Assembly (NCBI GenBank): GCA_964631935.1
Contig: CAZWAV010000001.1
Span: forward strand, 211,460 to 275,459
From: an uncultured Candidatus Saccharibacteria bacterium
GTDB lineage: Bacteria; Patescibacteriota; Minisyncoccia; Phycocordibacterales; UBA9973
Reading direction: 5' to 3'
DNA length: 64,000 nucleotides
The notes beneath the pieces are model-generated. The model was not told where the DNA came from. It ran no database searches and saw only the letters and a list, made by a program, of their open reading frames with translations. The translations under genes were made by a program, and so were the position numbers. Every line of letters starts with the position of its first letter. The stretch's first letter is position 1. Below are positions 5,166 to 21,664 of the stretch, piece after piece.

Positions 5166-5179
5166 TATATCATTTCTAA

Positions 5180-5851: not shown

Positions 5852-5953
5852 AAAAAAGGAGGGTTAGGAGGGGGAAATACAACACGTGGCCACAAAGAGA
5901 AATGCAGTTTACTTTAATAGAGAATTCCTAAATTGCCCTCCTAGCCCACCTAA

Positions 5954-7576
5954 CTAACCAGGTGATAAATCAAAATTAAGAAGATTATTATCAACATCTT
6001 GCTGTATGGATGATGTATTAAGTTTCTGATCCTTGAATCTGACACCAATCCAACAATTAACCTGTTCTATCTTTCCTGTCTCAATATTTTTTATGCTTCT
6101 TTTTGCGCTACCAATTGATATAAACTTAGGTAATTGCTTTCCGATTGTTACTTTTGTCATTCCTACTGGAAGATCATTTTTTGAGGCAAAGTTTATAAAT
6201 TCATGTTCCATTTTATCTTTAGTTATATAAACAGACGTGTCTGAAATTACCTCTAACTCACTATAGGCAAATGTTGCTAAACTTGAGGCAGACATACTCA
6301 TTTCTTTCTTTATCTCATCAGCAGACTGGCTGTAACTAAAGTTTTGACTTTGTAATAGATTATGGAGTCCTTCAAGAGCAAAATTTAATATTCCTGAAAG
6401 CTCTAGGTCCGTAGTAATCTTTTCCAACAAGAACTTGTCTGGTTTATCTGTTCTTTGTTCAAATCTTATTAATATCCACCTACTAAAATACGCATCATCA
6501 TCTGTATCCTTAATCGCTGGAATCTTATTACAAGAAAATGTTATTTTTGCATGGTTTTTAAAGGTAAATAAATCACCGAACTTTTTTTCTCCAGTTACAC
6601 CACCACCCCCAGTAAGCATCTTAAATATTCCATTATCGGTAATATCTTTGAAAGAAAGATCATCATAAATATTTGCATGTTTTTGATATAAGTTAGAAAG
6701 CGCAAATTTATCAGAGCTAAGTCTTTGCAAACTTACACCAGAAATATTTTCTTCACCTAAAAACTTAATCAAAACATTAAGTAGTGTTGTTTTCCCCGTA
6801 TCTCTTTCACCCAATAGTATGATTGCTTTTTTAAATGGATAACTCCTATATAAGCAATATCCAAACCACTCCTGTATTACTTTTACAGAATCATCATCTA
6901 GTATTTGATTCAAAAACTCTTTGAATTTAGGGCAATCAATATCTTTACTAAAATCTACGGGAATCTGATAAAGAAATAGATACTTTGGGGAATGAAACAA
7001 AAATTCTTTTGTCATTAAGTTATATACCCCATTCCTAAAATTTATTAGATGTGTATCAGCATTAAAATCTTTCCTTTCCTTGTATGTCTTATCTTTTATA
7101 TTTCTAATAATTTCCTCCCTGTAATAACTTCCACTTAAATTTTCTGTTATTTCCGATATTTCTCTTTTCACTAAACCATGATCAACTACATATACACCAT
7201 TTTTATAAATGTATATCTCTTTAGTGTTATCTCGGTTCCCGATAGTTTTAATGTTATGCTTATCAATCAAATATAAAGCTATGTCCCAAGTACCTTGAGT
7301 TTTATTTGTTTTTAAACTAGTTTTCAGTTCATCTAGCTTTTTTTCTGTATTCAATTCCTCCTTAGTTATATAGTCCTTTAAGTAGTCAAATAAATGAAGA
7401 AGTTCACTAGTTCTAATTAAGTGATTTTTATCTTTATTCCATCGTAATACCTTCGGCAAGACTACCTTATCCCAATCTGTTTTGGGCGTTGATTTAAGAT
7501 TGTTTCCAATAAAGACTTTATACTCAAGTAACACCTTTTCGTCTATTGGCTTTACTGGATTATTTATTTCATTCAT
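5954..7576 (-). CDS. Phage/plasmid primase-helicase, P4/D5 family (D5_N + SF3 NTPase)
   Basis: Walker A LLGERDTGKTTLLNVL followed by hydrophobic-D/E Walker B region, 540 aa, architecture typical of P4-alpha/D5-like primase C-terminal NTPase. Confidence 0.7.
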   Translation of the reverse strand: MNEINNPVKPIDEKVLLEYKVFIGNNLKSTPKTDWDKVVLPKVLRWNKDKNHLIRTSELLHLFDYLKDYITKEELNTEKKLDELKTSLKTNKTQGTWDIALYLIDKHNIKTIGNRDNTKEIYIYKNGVYVVDHGLVKREISEITENLSGSYYREEIIRNIKDKTYKERKDFNADTHLINFRNGVYNLMTKEFLFHSPKYLFLYQIPVDFSKDIDCPKFKEFLNQILDDDSVKVIQEWFGYCLYRSYPFKKAIILLGERDTGKTTLLNVLIKFLGEENISGVSLQRLSSDKFALSNLYQKHANIYDDLSFKDITDNGIFKMLTGGGGVTGEKKFGDLFTFKNHAKITFSCNKIPAIKDTDDDAYFSRWILIRFEQRTDKPDKFLLEKITTDLELSGILNFALEGLHNLLQSQNFSYSQSADEIKKEMSMSASSLATFAYSELEVISDTSVYITKDKMEHEFINFASKNDLPVGMTKVTIGKQLPKFISIGSAKRSIKNIETGKIEQVNCWIGVRFKDQKLNTSSIQQDVDNNLLNFDLSPG

Positions 7577-8364
7577 ACCTTATTTAATCTTATAATTACT
7601 TATAAGGTCACATTAGATATTAGATTTTCTATAAAAGAAAAATCTACTCATAAATCAACAGGCGATGTCCACTCGACCTGTCGATTTATAAATAGACTTT
7701 AGGTGGACACCTCTTATTTTTTTACAACAAAAAACCAACACATTACGTGCTGGTTTCTTTGTGTTAATTAAAAACTTTACCGAAAAAAGAAACTAGTTCA
7801 CGTAAGTGAATCGTTTATTATTTCAGTGAAATCTTTAATTTTCTCTCTTTTGCCTTTTAACGTCCATTTTTTACCGAGAGACTTCTCGTGGCAGTTTAGA
7901 GAATATAAAAAAGTATCCGATCTCTTTAGAATTAAAGAGGAGCTTTCTACAATTTACGCTTTTACCCAATCTCTATGCATAGGTCAAGGCTCTGGACGCA
8001 CCCCCAGAACAAAAAGAAAAATTGTTCAAAATCTCAAATACATATTTGTTTATATAATGTACCGGCTTGCAATACTTACAAGCTATATTAATTATAACAT
8101 AGTTTTTTCATAAAAAGCAAGTTTGATATATTTTTGCCTATAAAAGTGCTAAAATTGAGTTACAAGTTAATAAGGACCTAACCCTTTAGTTTTTACAGCT
8201 AAAGGTATGGTTAAAAGCCCGATCAGAGTAAAAACCCCAACATTAAGGGATTGCTCTGATCGGCCGTACCGGGAAACTGGTATGAGTGGCGAAAGCTACT
8301 GACCCTTGTGTTGGGATTTTTGTTACCCAAACTATAAGGGCATTATTAATATTTAATAATCCTC

Positions 8365-8610
8365 ATGAAAAATAAATCAGTAAACGGGTTGGTATCTGTC
8401 CTATTAAGCCTGTTTCTTATTGAATCTATTCCATACGTAAGTATCGGCTTAACTATATACGGACTATGGTTAGCTAGTATAGTTTTAAAAAATAAAGAGA
8501 CTAAAAAAAGAGATCGCATAATTTCTATTGTTACGTCAGTAATTGGATATGTCCTTATAATTGGACTTTTTGTTATTTATTTCAAAAATATCCTGCATGG
8601 TGCTAGGTAA
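8365..8610 (+). CDS. Small membrane protein (2 predicted TM helices), hypothetical
   Basis: 81 aa, two long hydrophobic stretches; preceded by a structured leader. Confidence 0.4.
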   Translation: MKNKSVNGLVSVLLSLFLIESIPYVSIGLTIYGLWLASIVLKNKETKKRDRIISIVTSVIGYVLIIGLFVIYFKNILHGAR

Positions 8611-8621
8611 TATAAATACTC

Positions 8622-9038
8622 ATGAAAAAAATCATCATTAGAGAAAACAAAATAGTAGTGTCTATTATATTAGGGAGTATTATAATTGGATTATCTTTTT
8701 ATTTTGGCCAAATAGAGAAACATACACAGCAAGCACAAAAAATAAATCAAGAGGAAAATATAAGATGTCAAAAAATAGCTATAGACAATAAAGATACTAA
8801 GGTATCATTCTATAAATTTGAATATCACTATAACCAAAATACTGGTATGTGTATCTTGGCATATATAAAAAACGATTCCTATGGTGGTAGAAACTATCTG
8901 GTTACTGATTTATTCTCTGGTAAAGATATTTATAATAAAATTGGGATAGAACCTGGTGATGAAGCGGTTAGACTATATAACGAATGGGATCATTTATCTA
9001 ATTTATATTTTTATCAAAAAGAAGTAAGAATACCTTAA
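8622..9038 (+). CDS. Hypothetical membrane-anchored protein
   Basis: 138 aa, N-terminal TM helix (VVSIILGSIIIGLSFYF), 11 nt after previous ORF. Confidence 0.45.
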   Translation: MKKIIIRENKIVVSIILGSIIIGLSFYFGQIEKHTQQAQKINQEENIRCQKIAIDNKDTKVSFYKFEYHYNQNTGMCILAYIKNDSYGGRNYLVTDLFSGKDIYNKIGIEPGDEAVRLYNEWDHLSNLYFYQKEVRIP

Positions 9039-9196
9039 AAGGTTAATTATTAGATTTATCATTAAAAGTAGTAGAATCACGATTTACTATTTTATTGGCT
9101 TCAATTTTAACCTTTTCTATCTGTATATTTGGCGTATCACACCAACCAATCCCAGTTATTTTTATTAAGATTTTTCTAAAAAAGTTTTTCATATAA

Positions 9197-9757
9197 TTAA
9201 AGTGAATATTTTGATTCTTTTATCATGCCTTTAGTAAAATCCTTAAATCCTGGATCTTTTGTATCAATAGGAATACTACTTTCACAAAAAGCTCTTAGAT
9301 TATACTTACCATTATTTTCTGTTTTATATATCCAGGCCCAAAATATAGCATCTGGTTTATCGACAAAGAATAGATCAGCTTGCACTCCACCAGTCTCGTT
9401 ATCTTTTGCACTGAGAATAATAAATTTACTTTTATAATAAGATTTATCAAAATTATCTAATCCACACTTTTTACCGCTATCTAAATTACTCTTCTTTATT
9501 GCATATTCATCAACTCCATTATTCGTTCCATCTAGATATGCATTTAGTCCAGTACGGATATGTTTAATATATTCACTGTTATAAACTTCTTCTTCTGTCG
9601 GATTTTCACTAAATTCGGAATGTTTAGCAAGCTCTGTTTTTTGAGAATTAACCTTTGTTTCACTTGATCTGTTTTTTGACATTATAATGTAAATTGCAAT
9701 AATTACCAAAACTAATATGGCGATAACAATATAGAGTGTTTTAGTTTTTCTTTCCAT
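9197..9757 (-). CDS. Hypothetical membrane-anchored protein
   Basis: 186 aa; N-terminal TM (LYIVIAILVLVIIAIYIIM) then soluble domain. Confidence 0.5.
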   Translation of the reverse strand: MERKTKTLYIVIAILVLVIIAIYIIMSKNRSSETKVNSQKTELAKHSEFSENPTEEEVYNSEYIKHIRTGLNAYLDGTNNGVDEYAIKKSNLDSGKKCGLDNFDKSYYKSKFIILSAKDNETGGVQADLFFVDKPDAIFWAWIYKTENNGKYNLRAFCESSIPIDTKDPGFKDFTKGMIKESKYSL

Positions 9758-9807
9758 ATGTAGATTATAACAACATTAAATAAAAGCTGCTATTACAACT
9801 TTTTATA

Positions 9808-10743
9808 TTAATTCCATTCAAATCCTCTACCGAAATGACCCCAGTTTGAAGTTTCTGATAGTTTTACTTCTCCTAATTTTAGATGCTCATAAATCCCTTT
9901 TGGTGTTAGATCATATCCTTCAATTCCCATCTCTAGTCCATCTACTACAACTACTGCCATGATTGGTTCACTCCTACCTATCGCATATGCGAGCTTTGTA
10001 TATACTTCCTTGGCTTTGTACTTCTTAAGGAAATCTACGGCTATTTTACGTGCCATATAGGCCCCTGAACGGTCTACTTTTGTGTAATCCTTACCAGAGA
10101 ATGACCCTCCACCAATAGGCACTTCTGGGCCATAATTATCAATTATTAGCTTCCTACCAGAGAGACCTGTATCAGCATCAAATCCCCCTTGGCTCCACTG
10201 GCCTGCAGGATTAATTAGATACTCTTCAGACTCTATTATACTTTTCACTAAGTTTAGTAATTCATCATTCTTTGTATTCTGAAAACTAGCGACAACAGTT
10301 TTAACCTTACTATTCTCTATTGTTACTTGGGTCTTACCGTCATATGGATAAACCTTAAATATTTTCTGACACAAATCTCTAGCTAGAACATATTCAAGAG
10401 GAAGATATTCATCTGTTTCTCTTGTAGCGTAACCTTTCATTATCCCTTGATCACCAGCACCACCAGTGTCGACACCTTGAGCAATTTCTTTACTTTGTAA
10501 AACGATATTAGAAATAATTCTAAAATTATCTCCAACGATATTTTTGATGACTGTTTCAACATCTGGATTAGCTTTTGAAGTTACTTCCCCATTAATAGTA
10601 ATAAGTCCATGACCTCCCATCACTTCTATTGCACAGCGACTATTTTTATCTCCTTCTAGATATGCATCTAAAATACCATCTGCAATAAGATCACAGATCT
10701 TATCTGGATGCATTGGGCTTACAAACTCTGCTGTCTTTTTCAT
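9808..10743 (-). CDS. metK: S-adenosylmethionine synthetase (methionine adenosyltransferase), short form
   Basis: SPMHPDKICDLIAD, GGAGDQGIMKGYA, INPAG, GLSGRKLIIDNYG, GGGSFSGKDYTKVDRSGAY, YAIG, GHFGR all align to bacterial MetK motifs; only 311 aa. Confidence 0.85.
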   Translation of the reverse strand: MKKTAEFVSPMHPDKICDLIADGILDAYLEGDKNSRCAIEVMGGHGLITINGEVTSKANPDVETVIKNIVGDNFRIISNIVLQSKEIAQGVDTGGAGDQGIMKGYATRETDEYLPLEYVLARDLCQKIFKVYPYDGKTQVTIENSKVKTVVASFQNTKNDELLNLVKSIIESEEYLINPAGQWSQGGFDADTGLSGRKLIIDNYGPEVPIGGGSFSGKDYTKVDRSGAYMARKIAVDFLKKYKAKEVYTKLAYAIGRSEPIMAVVVVDGLEMGIEGYDLTPKGIYEHLKLGEVKLSETSNWGHFGRGFEWN

Positions 10744-10751
10744 ATTAAACT

Positions 10752-10905
10752 AAAAAATTCCTCATAATGAGGAAAGATAGATGACTAGTCTTATCTTTCC
10801 GAATAGTACCTTCGTACTACTTGGTTGGAATTAGCACCTTACATTTGCAGGTTGCTGAACGGATCATTGAGCCAATACTCTACTCGTTCTCTTGATACAA
10901 CTATC
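10752..10905 (-). promoter_or_regulatory. SAM-I (S-box) riboswitch with intrinsic terminator in metK leader
   Basis: Minus-strand RNA reads GUUGUAUCAAGAGA...GGCUCAAUGAUCC...CAGCAACC...GGUGCUAAUUCC...AAAGAUAAG (S-box conserved blocks), followed by UUCCUCAUUAUGAGGAAUUUUUU terminator immediately upstream of metK. Confidence 0.6.
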
Positions 10906-10930
10906 TAGTTGTAAGTATATTATAGCATTA

Positions 10931-11062
10931 TTATAAATCCTGCCAAATCTCTAATGCATCATCTGTATCCAATCCATTCTCATCAGCAAATTCCTGAAGT
11001 TCTTCTGCTTCTTCAAGACTCAAATCATTATCTTTAGCTATTTCGAATGTTTCTTCATCCAT
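10931..11062 (-). CDS. Possible 43-aa acidic peptide (MDEETFEIAKDNDLSLEEAEELQEFADENGLDTDDALEIWQDL), last gene of defence-like operon
   Basis: ORF below track cutoff; starts 2 nt after DUF2726 stop; no independent support. Confidence 0.25.
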   Translation of the reverse strand: MDEETFEIAKDNDLSLEEAEELQEFADENGLDTDDALEIWQDL

Positions 11063-11064
11063 AT

Positions 11065-11565
11065 TTACTTCAATTTTTCTAATACTAATCTCTTAATTTC
11101 TTCTTTATTAAAAGATCCATTATTCCCGAAACGTAATAATGGCATTCCTGCCTCTTGCAGCATTCTTTCCACTTCACTGTCTCGCTCTATTCTATCTGAT
11201 CTTTCGTGCGATCTATCATCGAGCTCGATTGCGAGAAGTGGTTTGATATATGCTTTATCACAGATAACAAAATCTACAGATTTTCCATTTATATGACTAA
11301 ACGCACCCTTCCAACTCTGGCCAGTTATTTTATGATCCAAGATTGTTGGTAAATGAACTTGAGTAAATACTTGATATTGTTTCCCTACTACTTCGACAAG
11401 AATATCAAAAAACTCGTGTTCTGGTCTACTTATTAAGAAATCTTTTCGCTTATACTTATATATGCTTTTTTTCTTACCTTCTTTGTATTCTGAGTCGTTA
11501 GTAAAAAGCTTTATAACTAGTCCAATAGCAATTATTATTCCTATGATTATGTAAAATTTAGTCAT
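11065..11565 (-). CDS. DUF2726-family protein (restriction-endonuclease-like fold), N-terminal membrane anchor
   Basis: 166 aa; TM helix FYIIIGIIIAIGLVI then ...DFVICDKAYIKPLLAIELDDRSHERSDRIERDSEVERMLQEAGMPLLRF typical of DUF2726/NERD-like nuclease-fold proteins. Confidence 0.6.
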   Translation of the reverse strand: MTKFYIIIGIIIAIGLVIKLFTNDSEYKEGKKKSIYKYKRKDFLISRPEHEFFDILVEVVGKQYQVFTQVHLPTILDHKITGQSWKGAFSHINGKSVDFVICDKAYIKPLLAIELDDRSHERSDRIERDSEVERMLQEAGMPLLRFGNNGSFNKEEIKRLVLEKLK

Positions 11566-11566
11566 G

Positions 11567-12316
11567 TTATTTTTCTAATTCTTTTCTTGCATTCCAATAA
11601 GCACACCAGTCACAATGCTCTCCGGATTCTGGTATGGTATCATTGTCTAAACATTTTTTTATCTCAAACAATGTTTTTTCTACCCATGAATCATTACCTT
11701 TATGTTCAATTAAGTTAACATCAAAATCAATTCGCTTATCGAAAGCCTCTCTATCCATTTTCCCAGTACAATAGACAAAATAACCAATATCAGATACCTT
11801 GAGCCCATTCTGTCTCAAAAGCCATTGATACACCTCCATTTGACGTTTATAGCCATCTTGCCACTCTTTATCCAGTGCCTTTACGGCTTCATCCTTTGCA
11901 GTAGCTTTATAATCCACAACAATATATTCATCTTTTCCATTGATCCATAAATCGTCAATTGCACCGGTTACCATGAGCCCTGTTGGTTCATGTAAATATC
12001 TAATACCTCCAAAATTCCTTCGCCACTCATCAAGCTCTTCGTGAGACATAGGTCGTGCATCTATTCCATATTCTTTTTGTAGCGGATGCTGTTCATTCTT
12101 CACGCGGTATGAATCAAACTCTTGTTTAAGAAGATGGTCCACTGCGCTGTTTATGGAAAAAGGAAATCCAGGTACTCTTTTTACACCGAGTTTGTTATCT
12201 ATATAGAAACATCGTGGACACTCTTTGAATAAATCGATTTTAGAACGAGAAAGTTTCCAGTTCTTTCCTCCGTAATTCCACGACTCCATTCTGTTTGGGT
12301 TATAATATTCCGACAT
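11567..12316 (-). CDS. Cas4/RecB-family PD-(D/E)xK nuclease with Fe-S cysteine tetrad (PDDEXK_1/DUF83-like)
   Basis: Motifs GAIDDLW (II), VVDYKATAK (III), QMEVYQW (QhxxY), Cys pairs CPRC (N-term) and CDWC (C-term); 249 aa. Confidence 0.7.
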   Translation of the reverse strand: MSEYYNPNRMESWNYGGKNWKLSRSKIDLFKECPRCFYIDNKLGVKRVPGFPFSINSAVDHLLKQEFDSYRVKNEQHPLQKEYGIDARPMSHEELDEWRRNFGGIRYLHEPTGLMVTGAIDDLWINGKDEYIVVDYKATAKDEAVKALDKEWQDGYKRQMEVYQWLLRQNGLKVSDIGYFVYCTGKMDREAFDKRIDFDVNLIEHKGNDSWVEKTLFEIKKCLDNDTIPESGEHCDWCAYWNARKELEK

Positions 12317-12318
12317 AG

Positions 12319-12978
12319 TTATTTTTTAATTATTGATTCATTCTCCTTATATGCAGAAAAAATTACCTCTAAAGTATAAAAGGAATTCTGAAGTTTAACT
12401 ATATCTAAGTATATATCAATCAAATCCCTTTTATTTATATTTTTTAATATTTCTTTATAATTTAATTTTATTTTAAGGCTATTTTGAGGATATTTAAAAC
12501 TTGTATTATCACTATCTTCAATCTCAAAATTTTTATTTATAATATTTTTAAATGTTTCAAGATTCTGATATTTATTAACAATCATCATTAAATCATATAT
12601 TTTATCTATGATATTATCATGACTTTTGTTTACAAAAACCCAATATTCATTATCCTTATTTTTTTCATAAGTTGTATTAATTACTTTTTTAATTGAACTT
12701 AAATTAGTTAAATTCATTACATCTCTTAATATTTGAAGATTATCATGAGTTTCATATTTTTTAATCAAAGCCTTTTGTTCTAATAAAACAATAAAAAATT
12801 TAAGATACAACTCAATTCCATGTTTTATATTAAAAATCATTGATATGTATAGATCCTCAATCTCAGACTCTACATTATTATATTTTTTATATTGCATCTC
12901 ACTACAAGCCAAAGAAGCTATATTTAAATAATTTCTAGCAAAAATAGACCAGTTTTCTTTTATATCATTGTGTTTCAT
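12319..12978 (-). CDS. Hypothetical protein (N/K/I-rich), operon member
   Basis: 219 aa; no recognisable motif; 4-nt overlap with MTase gene stop, 2-nt gap to nuclease gene. Confidence 0.5.
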   Translation of the reverse strand: MKHNDIKENWSIFARNYLNIASLACSEMQYKKYNNVESEIEDLYISMIFNIKHGIELYLKFFIVLLEQKALIKKYETHDNLQILRDVMNLTNLSSIKKVINTTYEKNKDNEYWVFVNKSHDNIIDKIYDLMMIVNKYQNLETFKNIINKNFEIEDSDNTSFKYPQNSLKIKLNYKEILKNINKRDLIDIYLDIVKLQNSFYTLEVIFSAYKENESIIKK

Positions 12979-15900
12979 TTTTTACTTGAATTTTCTATAA
13001 TTTCAATTTCTTCTGGAGTAAGTTTATAGAGTTTATAAACCAATTCATCTATTTGATGCTCGAGTTTTTTAGTATCATTATCCTTATTTTGTTTTTTATG
13101 ATCAATAACTTGATTAACCAAACCTTCTATTGCTTTTTTTATTTCCAAATTAGTTTCAGCTGGAATAATTGGAAGCTCGTTTACGAATATTTTTGAGATA
13201 TCATATCCTGCATTACCCAAAGATGCACCAATTAATTTGAAGTAGAAAAAATTTAACTTTGAATTTAATATGCCTAATAAGTACTTCAAGTTATTACCAA
13301 TAATAAAGAAACATTTTTGGTTTACAAGAACCCCTGAATCATCATATGCAGCGGCAAATTCTTTATTAATATTTGGATAAATAATTTTATTTTGCTCCAT
13401 TTCTTTAAGATAACGTTCGGAAGGGTTTTGATCTAATTCGATCCAGTTATGATCACCTCTTATAACTTGTGCCCGACTTTCTAAAATTTCTTTATAGTGA
13501 CTTAAATGTTTTTTTATTGCTGGGTATTTATCGATAATTTTATGTGTACCATAATATGTTGTTATTAAATATTTATGTTGCCAATCATAGCTATATTTAG
13601 CAACATCCTTTCCTCTTAAAATTGGTTTAATAAAAACTTCTGAATTTTTATCATTCTTAATTAATTCATTTCTCTTGGCTTCATCTACAATAAAAACACC
13701 TTCCTTTTCACCTGAACTATTTTTAGTATCGTTTCTGCCTGTCAAAATACCATAATTAATTTTTATTGAAGTCCAATCTTTTAATTTTAAACCCCTTGCT
13801 TCAATAGATGCTTTTAAATTAGCAACACTTTGGTCAATTAAGGCGAATGAATTTTCTCCTAAGTCAGACTGTTTCATTTTGTATAAAATATCATCAATCC
13901 GTTGTCCATATTTTAAATAATGTTCTCCGTTTTGTCCTCCTTTTCTAATAATAATTATATTTGTGTCTACAGTAGCAGTTTCAAATTGACCTCCACCCAA
14001 ATCAATTAATACTTCAATTTTAGTCTTGTTTTTTAACAATAGCCTAAGCTTATCACCATATCTTGAACGCATCCATTTGTTACTTGTTATATATGTGAGG
14101 GTTCCGTATTCAGAAAGTAAGTTATAACCTAGTTCATAAAAATAACAGTAAATATCAGCGGTAGTATTTCCAACGTCGTAATTAGAACACAATTCGTCTT
14201 TAAATTTTTTAGGTAAGTCACGGTGTCGAATATATGGCGGATTACCTATCACAATGTCAAAACCACCTTTTTGCTCAAATACATCAGCAAAATGAAGCTT
14301 CCAAAGAAAAAATGGTTTGATCTTGGATTTCTTAAATCCTTCAATTTTGCTCAATTCTGAAGTCTTACCTTGTTCTATTAATGTAGCTTCAATAAGCTCC
14401 CATTCAAGTCTCTCTATTTCTTTTTTAATACTTTCTTTTTTATCTTTCTTGTTTGTCTCAAAAAAATGCTTTTGTAATAACTTTAATTGATCTGCTTTGA
14501 ATTTAGATTCCTTGTGTTTATCAAAATCAAAAAGTCCAGAAACTTCAATATTAACTTTCTCTGTTTTCGTAAGTTTTTTCAGTTGATCATGTATACTTTT
14601 GGCCTCAGTGTCTAGTTCAACTTTCTTTATAGGTGTTAATTTATTATCTGCATTAAGTCTAAAATACTCTTTTTGCAAAACAGACTGTTTCTTTTTTAAG
14701 TCTTCAATTTGTTTTTCTTTATCTGTATCTATAGTCTTTATTATATTTTCATCAAAAAGTTTTACGCCTTCATATTCCTCAAGCAATGAATTACCTTGCA
14801 TAATCTTGTAATCCAAATTCGGAAGCACTGGCGGAGCAATCTTAGGGTCATTTGATTCAAATTCAACTATAAGAGCAAGCCAGAACCGAAGTTTAGCTAT
14901 TTCCACTGCTCCTGGCTCAAGATCAACGGCGTAAATACAATTTTCAAGAGTTTCTTTTTTGATATCATAAAGTGATAATTCTTTCCCTGTATCATTAGTC
15001 TTATGAAGGAAGTTTGTATTCAGATAATGCCTCACAGAAGATATCTCGTTTAGCATACCCATAGGAAATGCCCCAGAACCGACAGCCGGGTCAACAATTT
15101 TTACATTACGAAGTGAGACATCAACTTTTTCTGCAATATCTTTAAGTTCTTGCATCCTCTTTATGATTTCTGTTTTTTTATAATCATCAACTAGTATAGA
15201 TAGATCAGTATCTTTATTTTCAAATAGTTTCCTAATTCTATCTTCAGGAGCAGTATCTTCGGAAACTAAGTGCTGAATTAAACTTTCTCGGCACATATAG
15301 TGCACTATCTCTCTAGGAGTATAGAAAGCTCCTTTATCCTTCCTATCCTTAACCTCAAGAAGATTTTCAAAAATCTTACCGAGCATTTCTGGATCAACAG
15401 ATATTTCCTGGTCAGATGGTGTGTTTTCATCTACGGTAAAATTATATTGGTCAAAGAAATCTAGTAATTTACCCAAAACTTCATTATGAATGTTTATCTC
15501 TGTATTTTTCCAATCATACACACTTTCAAATAAACCTCCATTTAAAAATGGAATTCTACAATTTAACTGCTCAAAAAAATCATCCTCACCTCGTTTCTCA
15601 GCTAAAGCCTCGTAAAACAAAGGCTCAAGATAATCATCAAAATAATTTTGATTAGTTTTTCTACAGGTTTCAAATAAAGATCGCAAATATCCTTGATCTC
15701 CAGTACCCCAATTTTCGTTCGGTCGTACTCCGAGCCAACCTTTTTTTTGAACAAAATATAAAAAGACGATTTGTCCCATTAATTTTTTAACAAAATCAGG
15801 GGTCGTGGAAATACCTGTTTTAACGACTATATTTTGGAATTCATTATTATCTTCAAAATCTTCAAGTATTTCTATAAATAAATCACGATAATTTTTAAAG

Positions 15901-16436
15901 AACTCCTTTGTAACTTTTTCTACTGAAAATAGTTCTTTTAATTCTTTAAAATTTGTAAATTTAAGAGAAGCTACTTGTTGTAGAAAAGTAACATTTTTCT
16001 GTTGTTTAGATACAAAATAAGTGAATCTCCTGAAAGTGCTGTAATTTACTTTTGTACCAACATAATCAGCATAAATCAAACTCATACGAAACCCTCCCTT
16101 ACTATCGTAATAAACAAAAATCCCTGCTCTAGCTTTTGGGAAGTTCTTTAATATTTTTTTCCCTAAATCGTATTGAGTTTTTCTACTTGCTCGTTCATTT
16201 AATGGTGTAAGTGACCGTGAACAAATAACTATAATATTTACATTATCTTCAAGATCGAAATCCCCTAGCTGTGAAAAATCAGTAAATTGTTTGTCGTTAA
16301 ATGTTGGAAGTGGGTTTTGTTGAACTCTAAAAAAATCATGACTCTTAAGTATCTCTGCTAATGAAGCAGCAGAGAAATCATCAATTAGTTTTTGGAATTT
16401 AACCTGGCTCATAATATTACATATTTCTATTTTCAA
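12975..16436 (-). CDS. Large gamma-class N6-adenine DNA methyltransferase (Eco57I/type IIG/PglX/DrmMI-like), 1153 aa
   Basis: Motif I VDPAVGSGAFPMGML followed downstream by motif IV FDIVIGNPPYI; ~400-aa N-terminal and ~350-aa C-terminal extensions of unknown role. Confidence 0.85.
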   Translation of the reverse strand: MKIEICNIMSQVKFQKLIDDFSAASLAEILKSHDFFRVQQNPLPTFNDKQFTDFSQLGDFDLEDNVNIIVICSRSLTPLNERASRKTQYDLGKKILKNFPKARAGIFVYYDSKGGFRMSLIYADYVGTKVNYSTFRRFTYFVSKQQKNVTFLQQVASLKFTNFKELKELFSVEKVTKEFFKNYRDLFIEILEDFEDNNEFQNIVVKTGISTTPDFVKKLMGQIVFLYFVQKKGWLGVRPNENWGTGDQGYLRSLFETCRKTNQNYFDDYLEPLFYEALAEKRGEDDFFEQLNCRIPFLNGGLFESVYDWKNTEINIHNEVLGKLLDFFDQYNFTVDENTPSDQEISVDPEMLGKIFENLLEVKDRKDKGAFYTPREIVHYMCRESLIQHLVSEDTAPEDRIRKLFENKDTDLSILVDDYKKTEIIKRMQELKDIAEKVDVSLRNVKIVDPAVGSGAFPMGMLNEISSVRHYLNTNFLHKTNDTGKELSLYDIKKETLENCIYAVDLEPGAVEIAKLRFWLALIVEFESNDPKIAPPVLPNLDYKIMQGNSLLEEYEGVKLFDENIIKTIDTDKEKQIEDLKKKQSVLQKEYFRLNADNKLTPIKKVELDTEAKSIHDQLKKLTKTEKVNIEVSGLFDFDKHKESKFKADQLKLLQKHFFETNKKDKKESIKKEIERLEWELIEATLIEQGKTSELSKIEGFKKSKIKPFFLWKLHFADVFEQKGGFDIVIGNPPYIRHRDLPKKFKDELCSNYDVGNTTADIYCYFYELGYNLLSEYGTLTYITSNKWMRSRYGDKLRLLLKNKTKIEVLIDLGGGQFETATVDTNIIIIRKGGQNGEHYLKYGQRIDDILYKMKQSDLGENSFALIDQSVANLKASIEARGLKLKDWTSIKINYGILTGRNDTKNSSGEKEGVFIVDEAKRNELIKNDKNSEVFIKPILRGKDVAKYSYDWQHKYLITTYYGTHKIIDKYPAIKKHLSHYKEILESRAQVIRGDHNWIELDQNPSERYLKEMEQNKIIYPNINKEFAAAYDDSGVLVNQKCFFIIGNNLKYLLGILNSKLNFFYFKLIGASLGNAGYDISKIFVNELPIIPAETNLEIKKAIEGLVNQVIDHKKQNKDNDTKKLEHQIDELVYKLYKLTPEEIEIIENSSKK

Positions 16437-19400
16437 CAGCTATTACTACTTCTTGTGTATTTAGTTTTGTTGCTGACTTAATTTTGTCTAAATAATCAAA
16501 ACCGAGATTATTTTTAAGTTCACTTAAGGTTTCTAATATTATTTTAGAGCTGTCTTTTGAATTCTCAATTGTAGGCATATCAGCCAATCGACGAAGTGTA
16601 AAAGTGCTTAACGTCTGGTAATCAGTAAGATCGTCAAGTAAGGTTCGGACAAAAGGAGCAAAGTCTTGTACATCTTCATTAAAGCTTTCAATATTTTGTA
16701 AAAGTGAGTTCAGATTATTAAAAGATTTAGTTTCAATAGCCATTTGTGATGAGTTTTGAGTTCTCTGCTCTATGATTTTTGAAGTTTCATAATTCTCCCA
16801 AAACATAGAACTTCTTGGAATAGATTTTTCATCTGGAGTAGTCTTTATTCTTTCAATAACTTCTTCTAAATTTAAGTCACGTACTTCTTTTTCGTCATTA
16901 ATCATACCTCTGACAAAAAGGGGTCTCCCTTTACGAATAAAAACAAGTAGATCATTTTCATTAAATTTTTTAGCAACTTTAATACGAGCAGGTAATTTCT
17001 TTATTTTTTCGATAACCTCAGGGTGTTTAGTCTTTATTTCATAATATAGACGACGGATTGTGGTAATGAAACTTTCTACTTCAAGTGCTTCTGGGTTTTG
17101 TTGCAACTTCGTAAAGAGTCCAGCAGCAGATGGATTCTCGTCTGGGCTAAATATCTTAGAGTCTTCTCCAAGAGTGCTATGAATCATGAACATCTTATTT
17201 TCAGCAATCTCTCTATTCTTTACGTACTCAGAACCTTTAATTGTTGGAAAGAAATTATAAATATATAAATTTTCAAAAACTTTTTGCCCTATACGGTTTA
17301 TACGACCAACACGTTGGATAACTCTAGTAGGGTTCCATGGAATATCATAGTTTACAACAGCACCACTTTTACTTAAGTTAAAACCTTCTGAAATTTTATC
17401 TGTACCAACTAATATAGAGTAAGTTTCTTCCTGTTTCTTTTGACTAGCATCAAAGTTTTTTAATACTTCATCAATCCGACCAGTAGATGTACTTCCGTAC
17501 ACAGACAACACCTTTCCTTTAAATTTTTTATCAAGACTTTCGAAAACATGTTTTGCGGTATCAGCATATTCAGTAAAGATCACAATCTTTCTATCTGGTT
17601 CACCCTTATTTTCTTTTGTATTTAATATTTCTTCAATTCTATGTGACAAAGCTAATACTTTTGGATCATTTTCTACTAACTTTAATTCATCTAATTCCGT
17701 TTTAATTTTCTCAAATAGCTCTTTATCTTTTTGTAAATCACCTAAGAATTTATCTTTTTCTTTAAAAGAATCAATGTTGTATTTCTTAGACTTCTTATCA
17801 TTAACTAAATCCTCTATAGACTCCGACATTTTAACCATACACTCTATAACTTCATCTTCATCCCCATCTGAAATCGCTTCAATAAGCTTTCTATCTAAAG
17901 TAAACTTACCTCCTGTTTTTTCAATAAAATCTAACGATTTACATGTTATCGCATAAAAATTATTTATACTTTCTGCAAATGCATTAAATGAGCTTTCAAA
18001 ACGTTTTATTAGTAATCTTCGCATGAAGTGAAACAAGTTTGTCTGAGAAATATATTCTAAATTTTCTTCTTCTCCAATAATTCTCTCTCCCTCAGCTCGT
18101 CCTTTTTCATAAACAGATGGACGATACATTGCACCGTTAAACAAACCATCTTCGCCAAAATAATCACTTATAACTCGATCATAAAAATCAGACTGTTCTT
18201 TAGAAAGCTCATAATAAACTTCTCTGGGATCAGAAATTTTAGATAAGTCTTTAACTTCCTTTGAATACTCAGGGTCATTCTTCAAATCGATTCTATTTCG
18301 ACGAATAACCACAGGTTCAATTATTTGGCGTATCCTATTGGAAATATACTTGATACGACCATTAACTTTACCGGTTTCAACTACAGCACTTCCAAACATA
18401 GTTGCATAAGTAGAAATAGCTTTCTCTCTTTTATTTTTATCTGTTGAATTATAGTCTTTATTAATATCACTTAATTTTTTAAACATGTTTTTATAATCTC
18501 TAAATTCAATTGAAAGATTTGGCGCAATAGTGAGCTGCGATTTACCTGGGACAATAAACAACTTTAATAGAGCAAATATATCTGCTGGGGAGTTATTAAA
18601 GGGTGTAGCCGTTAATAAAATTACCTTGCGATTTTTACAAATCATACTTAGTAACTCATAGGCTTCTGTATCTTGGTTACGAAAACGATGAGCTTCATCA
18701 ACAACAATAACATCTATATCGTTTCGTTCTTGAACAAATTTCAATGTACTACGTAGCGTAGCAAGGCCACATGATCTAACTTCCCAACCATACAATTCAA
18801 AGTCTTCTAAATATTTTTTCCAACCTGAAGATTTATTATCATCACCAACCAAGCCAGGAGGACAGATAACAAGACCTCTTTTACCCAATTGCTTTGCAAC
18901 CATGCCTGTAATAACACTCTTACCAAGTCCCACAACGTCAGCTATAATTGCTCCTCCTGACTCCTCAATCATTCCTAGGGCTTGAGAAGCTGCGTCTAGT
19001 TGATATTTGTATGTTATATAGCCATTCTTTTCTAATAGCTCTTTGATGGAACTAGAAACTTCAACTTGAGACTGCGCATCAAGATAGTGTTGGAGGATAG
19101 AAGCATAAGCTTCAAAGGGAGTTGGTTCAGCAATAAGAGTCTCTTGTTTTAATAAGTTAATTAATTCTTGTTTATATTGTTCTGTTTCTGTAATCTTTAT
19201 AGAACTTTCCCAGAGCTCATCAAAATATTTATCAGCGTCTTCTGTGCCAAAATCACCTAATTCTACATTAAATTCATGCTGATTTGAAAGTCCAGAGCGA
19301 GTTAGGTTACTACTTCCTGTTATAAAAACAGATTTTCTAATAGTTGCCAGTTGGTCTTTTATTTTAAATATATAAAGCTTTGCATGATTTGGTTCTAATG

Positions 19401-19779
19401 TTTTACGAATTTGTAGCTGGCCACTATTAATCAAATCAATAAAGAATAATATTTTCTTCTCAAAATCTTCATTATCAAATTCATCACTAGCTAATGAACT
19501 TTTTACAGAACCAAAGTAATTTTTAATTTTCTCTCTATTTGTTAAGTTGTTGCTATTTTCTGAATACTCGAAAAGACCGTGAACCCCCTTGTCTGCATTA
19601 AGTCCAACTAACACATCCATTTTAATATCAGGACGATCTTTTATGCTTTCATACAATTCAGCAATTCCTGAAAAATAGAAAAAACCTACAAGAAACTTCA
19701 GTTCTTTGCTGTTTTCGATTAATTCAACAAGTCGCTTTTTTAGATCCTTCCCTGCCTCATTCGTTATAAAATTAGTCAT
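16417..19779 (-). CDS. PLD-family nuclease domain fused to SNF2-family helicase, 1120 aa
   Basis: N-terminus: NHAKLYIFKIKD...ITGSSNLT (single HxK...GSxN PLD motif). Helicase: VIVVDEAHRFRN (DEAH), ILLTATPFNN, C-terminal helicase motifs (VGTDKISEGFNL, QRVGRINRIGQ). Confidence 0.85.
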   Translation of the reverse strand: MTNFITNEAGKDLKKRLVELIENSKELKFLVGFFYFSGIAELYESIKDRPDIKMDVLVGLNADKGVHGLFEYSENSNNLTNREKIKNYFGSVKSSLASDEFDNEDFEKKILFFIDLINSGQLQIRKTLEPNHAKLYIFKIKDQLATIRKSVFITGSSNLTRSGLSNQHEFNVELGDFGTEDADKYFDELWESSIKITETEQYKQELINLLKQETLIAEPTPFEAYASILQHYLDAQSQVEVSSSIKELLEKNGYITYKYQLDAASQALGMIEESGGAIIADVVGLGKSVITGMVAKQLGKRGLVICPPGLVGDDNKSSGWKKYLEDFELYGWEVRSCGLATLRSTLKFVQERNDIDVIVVDEAHRFRNQDTEAYELLSMICKNRKVILLTATPFNNSPADIFALLKLFIVPGKSQLTIAPNLSIEFRDYKNMFKKLSDINKDYNSTDKNKREKAISTYATMFGSAVVETGKVNGRIKYISNRIRQIIEPVVIRRNRIDLKNDPEYSKEVKDLSKISDPREVYYELSKEQSDFYDRVISDYFGEDGLFNGAMYRPSVYEKGRAEGERIIGEEENLEYISQTNLFHFMRRLLIKRFESSFNAFAESINNFYAITCKSLDFIEKTGGKFTLDRKLIEAISDGDEDEVIECMVKMSESIEDLVNDKKSKKYNIDSFKEKDKFLGDLQKDKELFEKIKTELDELKLVENDPKVLALSHRIEEILNTKENKGEPDRKIVIFTEYADTAKHVFESLDKKFKGKVLSVYGSTSTGRIDEVLKNFDASQKKQEETYSILVGTDKISEGFNLSKSGAVVNYDIPWNPTRVIQRVGRINRIGQKVFENLYIYNFFPTIKGSEYVKNREIAENKMFMIHSTLGEDSKIFSPDENPSAAGLFTKLQQNPEALEVESFITTIRRLYYEIKTKHPEVIEKIKKLPARIKVAKKFNENDLLVFIRKGRPLFVRGMINDEKEVRDLNLEEVIERIKTTPDEKSIPRSSMFWENYETSKIIEQRTQNSSQMAIETKSFNNLNSLLQNIESFNEDVQDFAPFVRTLLDDLTDYQTLSTFTLRRLADMPTIENSKDSSKIILETLSELKNNLGFDYLDKIKSATKLNTQEVVIAVENRNM

Positions 19780-20053
19780 AAATCATAGGATATCAGGTAA
19801 TAAAAACTGTATCGATTATACCACTGAAAGCCTAATTTATAAAGCTGTTTTAAATATAAGAAATATAACAAATCTAGCTGTAAGGTAAATTTTTTTTAAG
19901 TGGTTTAAACCCATAATCCACCCCACTCTTAAGCGGTGGAGGGATCTTTAGAACGAGGGAGAAAGGAATAAAATGTGGGGTTGTACCCATACCATTCCTA
20001 TAGATAATGACATGGATAGAATATAGCAGAAATGGCGATACTTTCAAAGAATA

Positions 20054-20455
20054 TTATTCAGTAGTCACACCATCAAACTCTGGGCTGTCAGCTTCGGCAG
20101 ATGCACGAGTTGCCCTGACTATATTATCTTTGTGATGAGGTGGGGTATACAAAGTGTAGAGTTTTAATGATTCAGTTTGTGAAGTATTTATTATATTGTG
20201 TTTGGATCCAGCAGGGACTATTACGGCATCTCCACCAATGACATCATATTGACTATCGTTAATAATGACCTTGGCTGTACCCTTTTCAAATCGAAAAAAC
20301 TGGTCACCTTTATCGTGAACCTCCATCCCTATTTCTTCTCCGATAGCAATAGACATTAAAACAAGTTGACAATTTTGAGCTGTATAAATAACCTTGCGAA
20401 AATTTTCATTTTCAATGGCCAATTCTTCAATGTTTCCCTTGTATCCTTTCTTCAT
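20054..20455 (-). CDS. Cupin-domain protein
   Basis: 133 aa; G(x)5H(x)H-like EEIGMEVHDKGDQFFRFEKG ... VPAGSKHNIIN two-motif cupin pattern. Confidence 0.65.
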   Translation of the reverse strand: MKKGYKGNIEELAIENENFRKVIYTAQNCQLVLMSIAIGEEIGMEVHDKGDQFFRFEKGTAKVIINDSQYDVIGGDAVIVPAGSKHNIINTSQTESLKLYTLYTPPHHKDNIVRATRASAEADSPEFDGVTTE

Positions 20456-20495
20456 GATTTAATTATACAACGATATTAAACCTAATAAAAGTCTA

Positions 20496-20723
20496 CTACT
20501 GCATTGCGCGCTGGATTTCTGCTTGGTGCATGCGCATGACATGCATAGTAGCAGCCATTTCACTCATGCCACCCTTTGTCATAGCTTTGACTTCATCACC
20601 GATTTTCTTGAAAAGCTCTGGGTTTTCATTTATAAGCTTAATGAACATATCTTGCTGAGATTTCGGCAAGTCTTTCATTTTCGCACGTATTAATTTTTCA
20701 GTTATAAAACTTTTGATTGACAT
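20496..20723 (-). CDS. Hypothetical small protein
   Basis: 75 aa, helical, no motif recognised. Confidence 0.4.
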   Translation of the reverse strand: MSIKSFITEKLIRAKMKDLPKSQQDMFIKLINENPELFKKIGDEVKAMTKGGMSEMAATMHVMRMHQAEIQRAMQ

Positions 20724-20770
20724 AGAGCAAATATAGCAAAAAAATAGGTTTTGTGCGAGTATAAATTTAC

Positions 20771-21664
20771 ATGGTAAATAAGCCCAAAATTATAGTCATA
20801 CTAGGTCAGACTGCCACCGGCAAGAGCGATTTCGCAGTAGAACTTGCCAAAAAAATTGGTGGCGAGGTTATTTCGGCTGATTCTCGACAAGTTTATAAAG
20901 GCATGGATCTCGGTACTGGCAAGATTACCAAAAAAGAAATGCGAGGTATTCCCCACCATCTACTCGATATTGCAAATCCAAAGAAAGTATTCTCCGTCAG
21001 TGATTATAAAAAACTTACTGATAAAAAAATAAAGGAAATCCTCTCTCGAGGGAATGTGCCAATACTTTGCGGTGGAACGGGGTTCTATATAGATGCAGTT
21101 GTCGATGGAGTTATCCTTCCTGAGGTACCACCAAATACAAAACTTCGAGCTACGCTTGAAAAGAAATCTGTCGAAGCGCTTTTCAAAATGCTTGCGAGTC
21201 TTGACCCTATCCGTGCGAAAAATATAGATGCTAAAAATAAAGTTCGTCTTATCCGTGCGATTGAAATCGCAAAGGCACATGGTTCAGTCCCTACGGTAGT
21301 TAAACAAAATAATTATGATGTATTAAAAATCGGCCTCACTCTTCCTGATGAAGTATTGAAAGAGAAAATCTATAAACGTCTGATTACTCGCATGAAAAAA
21401 GGAATGCTCAAGGAAATAGAAAATCTACACAAGAATGGACTTTCCTGGGAGCGAATGGAATCTCTAGGTCTTGAATACCGATATGGTTCACTTTATCTGC
21501 AAGGCAAAATGACCAAGCAGGAAATGATAGAGAAATTAAATACTGAAAGCTGGCACTACGCCAAGCGCCAGAAGACGTGGTTTAAGAGAGATAAAAATAC
21601 GGTTTGGATAGATCCAAGGAAGAAATCTAGATCATTAAAAGATATAAAAAACTTTTTGAAATAA
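20771..21664 (+). CDS. miaA: tRNA dimethylallyltransferase
   Basis: IIVILGQTATGKSDFAVELAKKIGGEVISADSRQVYKGMDLGTGKIT = MiaA P-loop N-terminus; 297 aa. Confidence 0.9.
   Translation: MVNKPKIIVILGQTATGKSDFAVELAKKIGGEVISADSRQVYKGMDLGTGKITKKEMRGIPHHLLDIANPKKVFSVSDYKKLTDKKIKEILSRGNVPILCGGTGFYIDAVVDGVILPEVPPNTKLRATLEKKSVEALFKMLASLDPIRAKNIDAKNKVRLIRAIEIAKAHGSVPTVVKQNNYDVLKIGLTLPDEVLKEKIYKRLITRMKKGMLKEIENLHKNGLSWERMESLGLEYRYGSLYLQGKMTKQEMIEKLNTESWHYAKRQKTWFKRDKNTVWIDPRKKSRSLKDIKNFLK

Follow-up and report, generated by a model that had tools for sequence, protein, structure and literature searches.

Does a run of six tightly spaced genes in a bacterial genome encode one defence system, or several elements that came to be transcribed together? 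We addressed this question at a locus in a 64,000-nucleotide (nt) stretch of DNA, here called the window, from an uncultured Candidatus Saccharibacteria bacterium (contig CAZWAV010000001.1, positions 211,460 to 275,459). On the minus strand of the window, from position 19779 down to 10931, lie genes for a phospholipase D (PLD)-SNF2 fusion protein, a large DNA methyltransferase, a 219-amino-acid (219-aa) protein, a Cas4-like nuclease, a DUF2726 protein and an acidic 43-aa peptide. A preliminary description made from the sequence alone had seen in them a single module that resembles systems of restriction-modification (R-M) and also the restriction-modification-associated defence island system (DISARM), with two extra nuclease-fold partners. 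The R-M/DISARM-like core of that proposal held up, but the union of all six genes, extra nucleases included, in one system did not. We think it probable that the region is a composite defence locus in a genome of the Patescibacteria, or candidate phyla radiation (CPR), in which three co-transcribed layers of different origin (a core pair, an accessory gene and a resident-genome module) lie end to end, and that the six-gene arrangement is a lineage-specific mosaic and not one system.

Among the six genes, only those for the PLD-SNF2 protein and the methyltransferase are co-conserved. The PLD-SNF2 protein (16417-19779, minus strand; 1120 aa), a predicted ATP-driven translocase-nuclease and the likely restriction subunit of the pair, matched the Pfam families PLDc_2, SNF2-rel_dom and Helicase_C. 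In a 17-sequence alignment of homologues its motifs were invariant: HxK (H132 and K134), GSSN (155-158), GLGKS (K287), DEAH (361-364) and TATP (390-393). The family comprises more than 5346 homologue clusters (E<1e-20), which as a rule are full length with identities of about 50%, and occurs in Chloroflexota, Patescibacteria, Bacteroidota and many other phyla; we found no solved structures of relatives beyond generic SNF2 cores. The methyltransferase (12975-16412, minus strand; 1145 aa from its ATG) is a large gamma-class N6-adenine DNA methyltransferase with a TaqI_C target-recognition domain. It matched Eco57I (6.3e-39), TaqI_C (3.1e-17) and N6_Mtase in Pfam and carries a conserved N-terminal domain of about 150 aa. 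The domain and motif readings of the preliminary description (PLD, SNF2, N6-adenine methyltransferase, RecB/Cas4-like and DUF2726) were confirmed by hidden Markov model (HMM) scans and alignments. RefSeq plasmid records call the members of the pair "helicase-related protein" or "SNF2-related protein" and "N-6 DNA methylase".

A collection of one genome per species held at least 575 confirmed matching stretches with PLD-SNF2 loci, and 80 of these loci were analysed by tblastn and clustering of open reading frames (ORFs). A methyltransferase homologue, N-terminal domain included, adjoined the PLD-SNF2 gene in 57 of the 58 loci that retained 4 kb or more of flank on each side. Across many phyla, either gene could come first. 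Relatives of the 219-aa, DUF2726 and 43-aa proteins occurred in none of the 80 loci, and the Cas4-like gene occurred in one, from Andersenbacteria (L009); scans with family HMMs for the Cas4-like, DUF2726 and 219-aa proteins returned only L009 and distant DUF559 matches. The co-conservation expected of a single six-gene system therefore failed for four of the six genes, as only the methyltransferase recurs with PLD-SNF2. We found no named system with this two-gene architecture in the literature searched, nor any relevant paper there that joins DUF2726, SNF2, a methyltransferase and defence. The core is thus probably a widespread, unnamed, two-gene R-M/DISARM-like variant that stands apart from the named systems.

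Judged by its domains, the best reading of the pair is that of an ATP-dependent R-M-like enzyme whose parts have been split. The methyltransferase, with its TaqI_C domain, would recognise a DNA motif and methylate host sites, giving self-protection by N6-methyladenine. The PLD-SNF2 protein would serve as the restriction arm, translocating on and cutting DNA with unmethylated sites. In known PLD nucleases the HKD motif must pair with a second copy to make one active site, and the single HKD motif of the fusion protein presumably pairs with a second copy in this way.

Comparison with named systems showed likenesses to several of them and identity with none. PADLOC labelled the methyltransferase as type IIG (full-length match to REase_MTase_IIG PDLC03596, 1e-165) and the helicase as partial DrmD (2.9e-40), the latter also matching 'HKD+Snf2' C3a139 over its full length (6.9e-36). 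The HMM libraries did not place the set in a named system. The pair has in common with class 1 DISARM an SNF2 helicase, a PLD nuclease domain and a large N6-adenine methyltransferase; DrmD gave the helicase its best PADLOC and NCBIfam matches, the methyltransferase matched part of DrmMI (1e-32), and methylation-based discrimination of self from non-self as in DISARM is likely. Unlike in DISARM, the PLD domain is fused to SNF2 and does not form a separate DrmC. Neither drmA nor drmB (DUF1998) was found among the six proteins or the Pfam-listed genes within ±10 kb, and no conserved third gene appeared in the 80 loci. Against NCBIfam DISARM_DrmD the helicase scored 172.5 bits over only part of the model length, with a cut-off of 610. 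With drmA and drmB absent and the DISARM_DrmD score far under its cut-off, identity with DISARM as defined previously (bioRxiv 10.1101/2021.12.28.474362) was ruled out. Bacteriophage exclusion (BREX) was ruled out in the same way, as neither PglZ nor BrxC occurs in the operon or its ±10 kb surroundings; PglX models scored 62-81 bits against the methyltransferase, with cut-offs of 400-900. These results agree with the earlier reading of a defence locus that has an R-M/DISARM-like core and lacks DrmA/DrmB, PglZ and BrxC.

The Type-2 BREX-related (BR)/Hma systems consist of a DUF499 ATPase, an N6-methyltransferase, an HKD-SNF2 helicase and a DUF3780 protein, and an R-M-like mechanism has been predicted for them (PMC12839542). 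As in Hma/BR, an HKD endonuclease is fused N-terminally to a Swi2/Snf2 helicase and paired with an N6-adenine methyltransferase (PMC12839542). Unlike in Hma, the HmaA model covers only the C-terminal lobe of the helicase (3e-25), and the methyltransferase is of the Eco57I/MmeI type with TaqI_C. No DUF499 ATPase or DUF3780 gene was present here or in the 80 related loci, which ruled out identity with Hma/BR. Type I R-M was also rejected: HsdR_N, HsdM_N and Methylase_S domains are missing, the nuclease is a PLD and specificity is provided by the fused TaqI_C.

Between or after the two core genes lies a slot whose content was highly variable across the 80 loci. A 540-aa AlbA_2/HATPase-like protein occupied it in 14 loci. 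Elsewhere, as read from cluster representatives, it held an AAA ATPase with DUF4143, DUF1016, DUF559, AbiEi/AbiEii and DarT/DarG, as well as a KilA-N protein and Shedu, which were recognised by Pfam scan. DUF559 genes lay in the slot of L021 and L042, and in L038 about 3 kb downstream of the pair. The slot also held serine invertases with inverted C-terminal (specificity) cassettes of the methyltransferase; in L042, L071 and L074 the invertase gene adjoins an inverted methyltransferase C-terminus fragment comprising the target-recognition domain. These inverted target-recognition cassettes suggest phase-variable specificity in the two-gene family. Programmed inversions have been published for Eco57I-type methylase and SNF2/PLD fusion genes (PMC9881135), and together with the invertible cassettes they fit an R-M-like arms race. 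In the closest relative (L159), the PLD-SNF2 protein is 92% identical, the methyltransferase 77% identical up to the specificity domain and the Cas4-like protein 88% identical, and a Shedu SduA gene and a 185-aa gene stand in place of the 219-aa gene. Other CPR loci have zero to three differing small genes between the methyltransferase and the Cas4-like gene.

In the window this position is taken by the 219-aa gene (12319-12978, minus strand), apparently R-M-linked cargo outside the conserved core. HMM library scans gave no family match for its product, and a word-indexed search returned only eight relatives. An exhaustive profile search recovered 310 clusters (at 50% identity), whose members are without exception standalone proteins of 200-240 aa, and 7 of 43 sampled family members matched Pfam HEPN (PF05168). 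A sequence-profile search of the PDB with the 43-member family gave no match. The protein has the four-helix up-and-down fold that characterises the HEPN superfamily, and we assign it to this fold with moderate confidence. Residues W10, H53, E56, K60, H78, D155, N158 and P164 are invariant in the family, and the catalytic Rx4-6H motif of HEPN RNases was not found in it.

Two of the relatives (L005 and L006) belong to complete type I R-M operons, where they separate hsdM from hsdS, and another lies directly after a type IIG enzyme (L007); the 219-aa protein was accordingly not sustained as a member of the system. The prrC gene sits inside the EcoprrI locus. By analogy, we read the 219-aa gene as a swappable, R-M-embedded HEPN accessory, of a type that comes immediately behind an N6-adenine methyltransferase gene, that may be positioned like PrrC in EcoprrI, the likeness being the HEPN fold and the location of homologues inside type I R-M operons, between hsdM and hsdS. 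Unlike PrrC, the protein has neither an ATPase domain nor an Rx4-6H motif. Its most likely role, on the PrrC analogy, would be that of a latent second-line effector, or of a regulator, coupled to the methyltransferase.

The Cas4-like gene (11567-12316, minus strand; 249 aa), a Patescibacteria 'solo' gene of the PF12705 type that appears to bound defence genes, is the most interesting lead at this locus. Its product matched PDDEXK_1 (PF12705) at 2.4e-14 over residues 22-242 and Cas_Cas4 at 2.5e-4. Motifs D121/D122, D135-Y-K137 and Q159..Y163 were invariant in 72 sequences, six cysteines were invariant or nearly so (C222 in 99%), and 129 of 249 positions were at least 98% identical. Its motifs II and III, QhxxY motif and cysteines are by sequence those of a PD-(D/E)XK nuclease of the RecB/Cas4-like type, and it may bind an iron-sulfur cluster. 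The cysteine pattern, CxxC...C...C...CxxC, is unlike that of usual Cas4 proteins, which have one N-terminal and three C-terminal cysteines. Homologues form more than 8000 clusters, the best 120 being 78-93% identical, and every match named by organism came from Patescibacteria/CPR except one, from a deltaproteobacterial metagenome-assembled genome.

We examined the context of this gene in 84 loci (L089-L172), between which the protein is 73-100% identical. In 68 of the 71 loci with an upstream gene, the Cas4-like gene ran in the same direction as that gene, at a median gap of about 7 nt. The upstream genes were mostly defence genes of many kinds: type I R-M (fused HsdM-S and HsdR), type III mod/res, type IIG, PLD-SNF2/methyltransferase pairs, SIR2-HerA, a membrane HerA-like ATPase, UvrD-like helicases, GmrSD, RhuM/Fic, Shedu, and retron-like and other reverse transcriptases with helix-turn-helix (HTH) regulators. 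Among 58 distinct upstream proteins were 10 reverse transcriptases, 6-7 HerA proteins, 5 UvrD-like helicases and 3 type IIG methyltransferases, along with HsdR, Fic/RhuM and SMC-like proteins. The downstream side served as a control, and there the nearest neighbours of appreciable size were mostly housekeeping or unknown genes (TspO, RmuC, oxidoreductases, MgtC and peptidases). That so many unrelated defence systems precede the Cas4-like gene speaks against the earlier placement of its product within the PLD-SNF2 system.

DNA homology between the window and every one of these loci starts 0-20 nt before the Cas4-like ATG and ends at the stop codon. A shared DNA motif before the ATG was sought and rejected, the 60 nt upstream in 70 loci being merely AT-rich with the prior stop codon a few bases away. 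Synteny around the gene was conserved only in traces, with ychF in L089, metK in L140, and a cupin gene and Sua5 in L114. Organisms that share only 45-56% identity in YchF, MetK, cupin and Sua5 (about 52% in YchF and MetK) have Cas4-like proteins 80-90% identical to one another, and this conservation reflects either extreme purifying selection or repeated transfer with homogenisation. We rejected a phage or mobile origin of the gene, because a scan of IMG/VR gave one weak partial match. Identity as a CRISPR (clustered regularly interspaced short palindromic repeats)-associated Cas4 was also rejected: scores lay below the Cas4 cut-offs (27.7 versus 65 for TIGR00372; 21.6 versus 22.7 for PF01930), and there were no cas genes among the neighbours in the 84 loci.

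Earlier work described Cas4-like genes of the solo kind in CPR, as well as fusions of UvrD with Cas4 next to type III R-M genes (Hudaiberdiev et al. 2017, PMC5704561). The protein studied here resembles those solo CPR proteins in its PD-(D/E)XK Cas4/RecB-like fold, its conserved cysteines, its location outside CRISPR loci and its occurrence in small-genome bacteria; UvrD-like helicases and type III mod/res genes, contexts noted in that work, recur in the loci examined here. In the papers searched we found no description of a systematic 3'-end position behind many defence systems or of conservation of at least 73%.

The two genes that follow seem to belong with the Cas4-like gene. The DUF2726 gene (11065-11565, minus strand) encodes a 166-aa protein with a hydrophobic N-terminal segment and a PD-(D/E)XK-clan fold, which matched DUF2726 (PF10881) at 6.6e-29 (100.7 bits versus a cut-off of 24.7), with weaker matches to MTES_1575 and DUF559 and no PADLOC match. 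Homologues with 53-80% identity stood directly after the Cas4-like gene in six loci (L130, L131, L135, L154, L169 and L170), which made DUF2726 the commonest downstream neighbour of at least 100 aa (6/66), and the gene is an occasional companion of the Cas4-like gene. The acidic peptide (10931-11062, minus strand; 43 aa, net charge -17) gave no family match in HMM library scans. Homologues with 43-72% identity in tblastn occurred after the Cas4-like gene in ten loci (L099, L100, L107, L110, L111, L112, L116, L125 and L170, with L103 added by clustering), 4-16 nt away in L099 and L100. Proteins of 58-59 aa with a net charge of -20 to -23 also lie downstream of the Cas4-like gene (cluster c16; L103, L110-L112, L116 and L125) and have the motif '...EEAEEL.E....G.D.DDA.EI' in common with the 43-aa peptide, and proteins of about 100 aa with a net charge of -7 to -16 recur in the same position (cluster c2; L104-L125).

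The Cas4-like, DUF2726 and acidic peptide genes would together form a resident-genome module, with the Cas4-like gene marking the 3' edge of a region that exchanges many defence systems and being co-transcribed with whatever stands upstream. The Cas4-like protein may act in defence, perhaps on DNA ends, or the gene may do no more than mark the limit of the hotspot. Tentatively, the Cas4-like nuclease with the acidic peptide, and sometimes DUF2726, could instead be a generic and required downstream module of Patescibacteria defence operons, in which the nuclease might process or degrade DNA ends left by the upstream system and the peptide might act as an inhibitor or chaperone. Such a module would account for the shared direction (68/71), the short gap and the absence of a conserved promoter of its own; for defence genes lying upstream but not downstream; for 80-90% identity where YchF and MetK from the same organisms show about 52%; and for the UvrD-like helicases directly upstream in five loci, which mirror the UvrD-Cas4 fusions beside type III R-M (PMC5704561). 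It fits less well with loci in which the neighbours are housekeeping genes only (L092 and L091) and with the presence of PolA, acetate kinase and GSDH among the upstream genes. Reverse-transcriptase and abortive-infection-type partners should not need a DNA-end nuclease, and solo Cas4 genes were found to evolve like ordinary cellular genes (PMC5704561). There is some chance, well short of even, that the Cas4-like protein and the acidic peptide are a lineage-wide component of Patescibacteria immunity, a common downstream module or an anchor for recombination or selection, whose operon would time and again take in unrelated defence systems (R-M types I, III and IIG, the PLD-SNF2/methyltransferase pair, SIR2-HerA, retron-like reverse transcriptases, GmrSD and Shedu). 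If so, the Cas4-like protein would both act in defence, for example in DNA-end processing, and mark a universal CPR defence hotspot, and the unknown genes that lie upstream of it in large number would be candidates for new defence systems.

Several observations concern genes next to the Cas4-like gene. A 776-aa protein that has a HerA-like ATPase and whose N-terminal half is hydrophobic and seemingly multi-pass (cluster c18; L104, L108, L109, L111 and L143), a 999-aa protein without a Pfam match (L009, 17670-20666) and a 356-aa protein without a match (cluster c45; L102, L114 and L115) are all encoded beside it, in the place typical of defence genes, and are candidate new defence genes. In L097, L101, L145, L152 and L155, a gene for an XRE-type HTH protein of about 68 aa opens a co-directional run that ends in the Cas4-like gene, with five different defence systems in between. 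The small HTH protein at the 5' end of several cassettes (cluster c1) was considered as a second conserved flank and rejected, since its members are 21-100% identical (median 36%), as ordinary controller-type XRE proteins are. In two activated-sludge contigs (L139 and L140), ORFs are heavily fragmented, yet tblastn gives intact PLD-SNF2, methyltransferase, Cas4-like and MetK homologues; the fragmentation is consistent with an alternative code in which UGA is a sense codon, as in Gracilibacteria/Absconditabacteria.

Base composition also divides the locus. GC content is 32.0% in the PLD-SNF2 gene, 30.2% in the methyltransferase gene, 19.7% in the 219-aa gene and 37.1% in the Cas4-like gene, against a mean of 36.4±3.2% for the genes of the window; the 219-aa gene lies five standard deviations lower and the Cas4-like gene is typical, so that the break at their junction is sharp (19.7% versus 37.1%). 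A 10,890-bp block (9113-20002), which takes in the six genes along with the riboswitch, metK and a 186-aa gene, recurs at 99.5% identity in three further contigs (L001, L002 and L004), where its immediate flanks are unrelated on both sides. Upstream of the block these contigs have a giant fn3-repeat protein, and the window has a cupin gene and miaA.

It is unlikely that an integrative mobile element, equipped with a serine recombinase and a primase, carries the whole block as its cargo, and that the gene mix reflects this and not a chromosomal hotspot. The near-identical block between unrelated immediate flanks would be expected of such cargo, as would the recurrence of a common recombinase region further along (3199-5824, 94.7% identical), the differing primases beside it (D5 versus Prim-Pol) and the low GC of the defence genes. 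The block takes in metK with its riboswitch, however, and the Cas4-like gene is host-like in GC. The position of ychF, just beyond the recombinase in the window and just beyond the Cas4-like gene in L089, suggests that the recombinase element is a separate insertion. We found no meaningful direct or inverted repeats across 2800-21000 when seeking att-like or junction DNA, and hence none flanking the block; nearly all other Cas4-like loci are free of recombinase and primase homologues, and from IMG/VR the Cas4-like gene is essentially absent.

The composite locus could also be divided differently, with the methyltransferase as a self-sufficient type IIG enzyme and the PLD-SNF2 protein as an independent defence gene that adjoins it by chance. 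We regard this as improbable. The full-length PADLOC type IIG match favours it, as does a domain order parallel to that of MmeI, with an N-terminal domain, a helical spacer, a gamma-class methyltransferase and a target-recognition domain. The adjacency of the two genes in 57 of 58 well-flanked loci, in many phyla and in both orders, argues against chance. In addition, unlike in type IIG enzymes such as MmeI, the methyltransferase N-terminal domain lacks a catalytic D..ExK, no such motif being present among its invariant residues (D111, R117, S119 and R137), and it is therefore probably unable to cut DNA. Pfam MmeI_N and MmeI_hel were not matched, and a profile of the N-terminal 440 aa searched against the PDB matched nothing of MmeI (5hr4) but the helical spacer and the beginning of the methyltransferase. 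In line with the preliminary description, the locus is probably not a canonical type IIG enzyme acting alone. In Type ISP enzymes (LlaGI-like), a motor, a nuclease, a methyltransferase and a recognition domain act on one site, and the core pair combines the same four. Unlike in type IIG and ISP enzymes, its activities are divided between two polypeptides and its nuclease is PLD/HKD, not PD-(D/E)XK or Mrr; its motor is SNF2, unlike the type I/ISP-like helicase.

How much weight should the tight spacing bear? A mechanical ORF list reproduced the six minus-strand ORFs of the preliminary description at the same coordinates, with a 4-nt overlap between the methyltransferase and 219-aa genes (12975-12978) followed by gaps of 2, 1 and 2 nt toward the 43-aa gene. 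The 20-nt overlap it had placed between the first two genes (16417-16436) was not retained; it arose because the longest ORF, with a TTG start (12975-16436, 1153 aa), was taken. Homologue alignment puts the methyltransferase start at the ATG at 16412 (MSQVKF...), in agreement with Joint Genome Institute (JGI) gene calls, and this leaves a 4-nt gap (16413-16416). No terminator-like site was found on the minus strand from 19779 to 10931, except a weak hairpin match with 3 GC pairs (18137-18121) within the PLD-SNF2 coding sequence. The window is 92% coding, the gap is no longer than 4 nt in 16 of its 45 co-directional gene pairs, and five successive junctions this tight would arise in it by chance with a probability of about 0.002-0.006. 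Tight gaps being common in the window, spacing alone is weak evidence for one functional unit, and genome scans should not take junctions of 4 nt or less as proof of a single system where, as here, 92% of the DNA is coding.

One integrated system, in which an R-M/DISARM-like core needs the HEPN-like, Cas4-like, DUF2726 and acidic proteins, is very unlikely: it would explain the tight junctions, the one upstream promoter-like site, the lack of a convincing internal terminator, the identical six-gene block in four metagenome contigs and the recurrence of the Cas4-like gene after PLD-SNF2/methyltransferase pairs in several CPR loci, but the four blocks are the same DNA (99.5-100% identical) and hence not independent, three of the proteins are missing from all 80 independent PLD-SNF2 loci and the Cas4-like gene from all but one, the slot of the closest relative holds different genes, the Cas4-like gene comes just as well after R-M of types I, III and IIG, SIR2-HerA, reverse transcriptases and GmrSD, and composition breaks within an operon whose tight spacing is common in this genome.

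Some points weigh against the composite locus that we favour. The 80 PLD-SNF2 loci were the best matches to the query, and close relatives are over-represented among them. Gene calls at the loci came from a greedy ORF caller, and many neighbours were annotated at cluster level only. The Cas4-like gene follows PLD-SNF2/methyltransferase pairs in at least seven independent CPR loci (L009, L090, L101, L117, L139/140, L159 and L167), a recurrence also expected of a recurrent partnership. The six genes look like a single transcription unit, in which no junction exceeds 4 nt and no terminator inside the run is convincing, so that functional coupling of all six is possible. Finally, the division of labour within the core pair and its cleavage mechanism are inferred from domains.

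With at least 575 matches and thousands of protein clusters, the core pair is very widespread, yet HMM libraries split it into a type IIG R-M enzyme and an orphan DrmD-like helicase. Recognising the pair as a self-standing R-M-like system, a minimal relative of class 1 DISARM and Hma/BR, would improve defence annotation, and the pair would be a compact model for the licensing of an SNF2 motor and HKD nuclease by a methyltransferase. In Patescibacteria, CRISPR is rare and defence is poorly charted; the variable slot and the run upstream of the Cas4-like gene offer handles for finding defence genes there by association.

The surroundings of the six genes were examined on both sides. Upstream, a candidate operon promoter (19815-19843, minus strand; TTTATA, a 17-nt spacer and TATAAT, with TG before the -10) lies 36 nt before the PLD-SNF2 ATG, as identified by consensus scan and direct reading, and a second candidate (20020-20047, minus strand) lies further upstream. 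The total of promoter-like sites in the consensus scan was no higher than shuffled expectation, and we therefore treat the site at 19815-19843 as a candidate only. Downstream, a S-adenosylmethionine (SAM) riboswitch (10788-10901, minus strand; RF00162, 53.4 bits versus a gathering score of 44.4) leads metK (9808-10743, minus strand), which encodes SAM synthetase; the preliminary description had placed the genes beside this locus, and Rfam agreed. The riboswitch and metK are the downstream limit of the gene run, outside the defence function. The best promoter-like site of the region (10946-10919, minus strand; TTGGCA, a 16-nt spacer and TATAAT, with TG) runs into the last codons of the 43-aa ORF and is predicted to drive the riboswitch and metK. 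Between the operon of the SAM-consuming methyltransferase and the leader of the SAM synthetase gene there is no terminator. L140, too, has a metK homologue, which lies some 7 kb downstream of its Cas4-like gene.

Beyond metK and the 186-aa gene, a putative integrative element (3329-9113, minus strand) extends toward ychF (2275-3390). It includes a large serine recombinase (3329-4978, minus strand), a D5_N/DUF5906 primase (5954-7576, minus strand), a 68-aa gene, a 223-aa gene and small ORFs. The earlier report of mobile-element surroundings was borne out by this recombinase and D5 primase (3329-7576) and by low-GC, variable DNA alongside. In L001, a Prim-Pol/AAA_25 protein replaces the primase, and the recombinase region (window 3199-5824) is 94.7% identical. 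Between the primase gene and two small plus-strand ORFs, within the putative element, lies a strong match to the LOOT RNA family (8175-8300, plus strand; RF03000, 90 bits versus a gathering score of 46).

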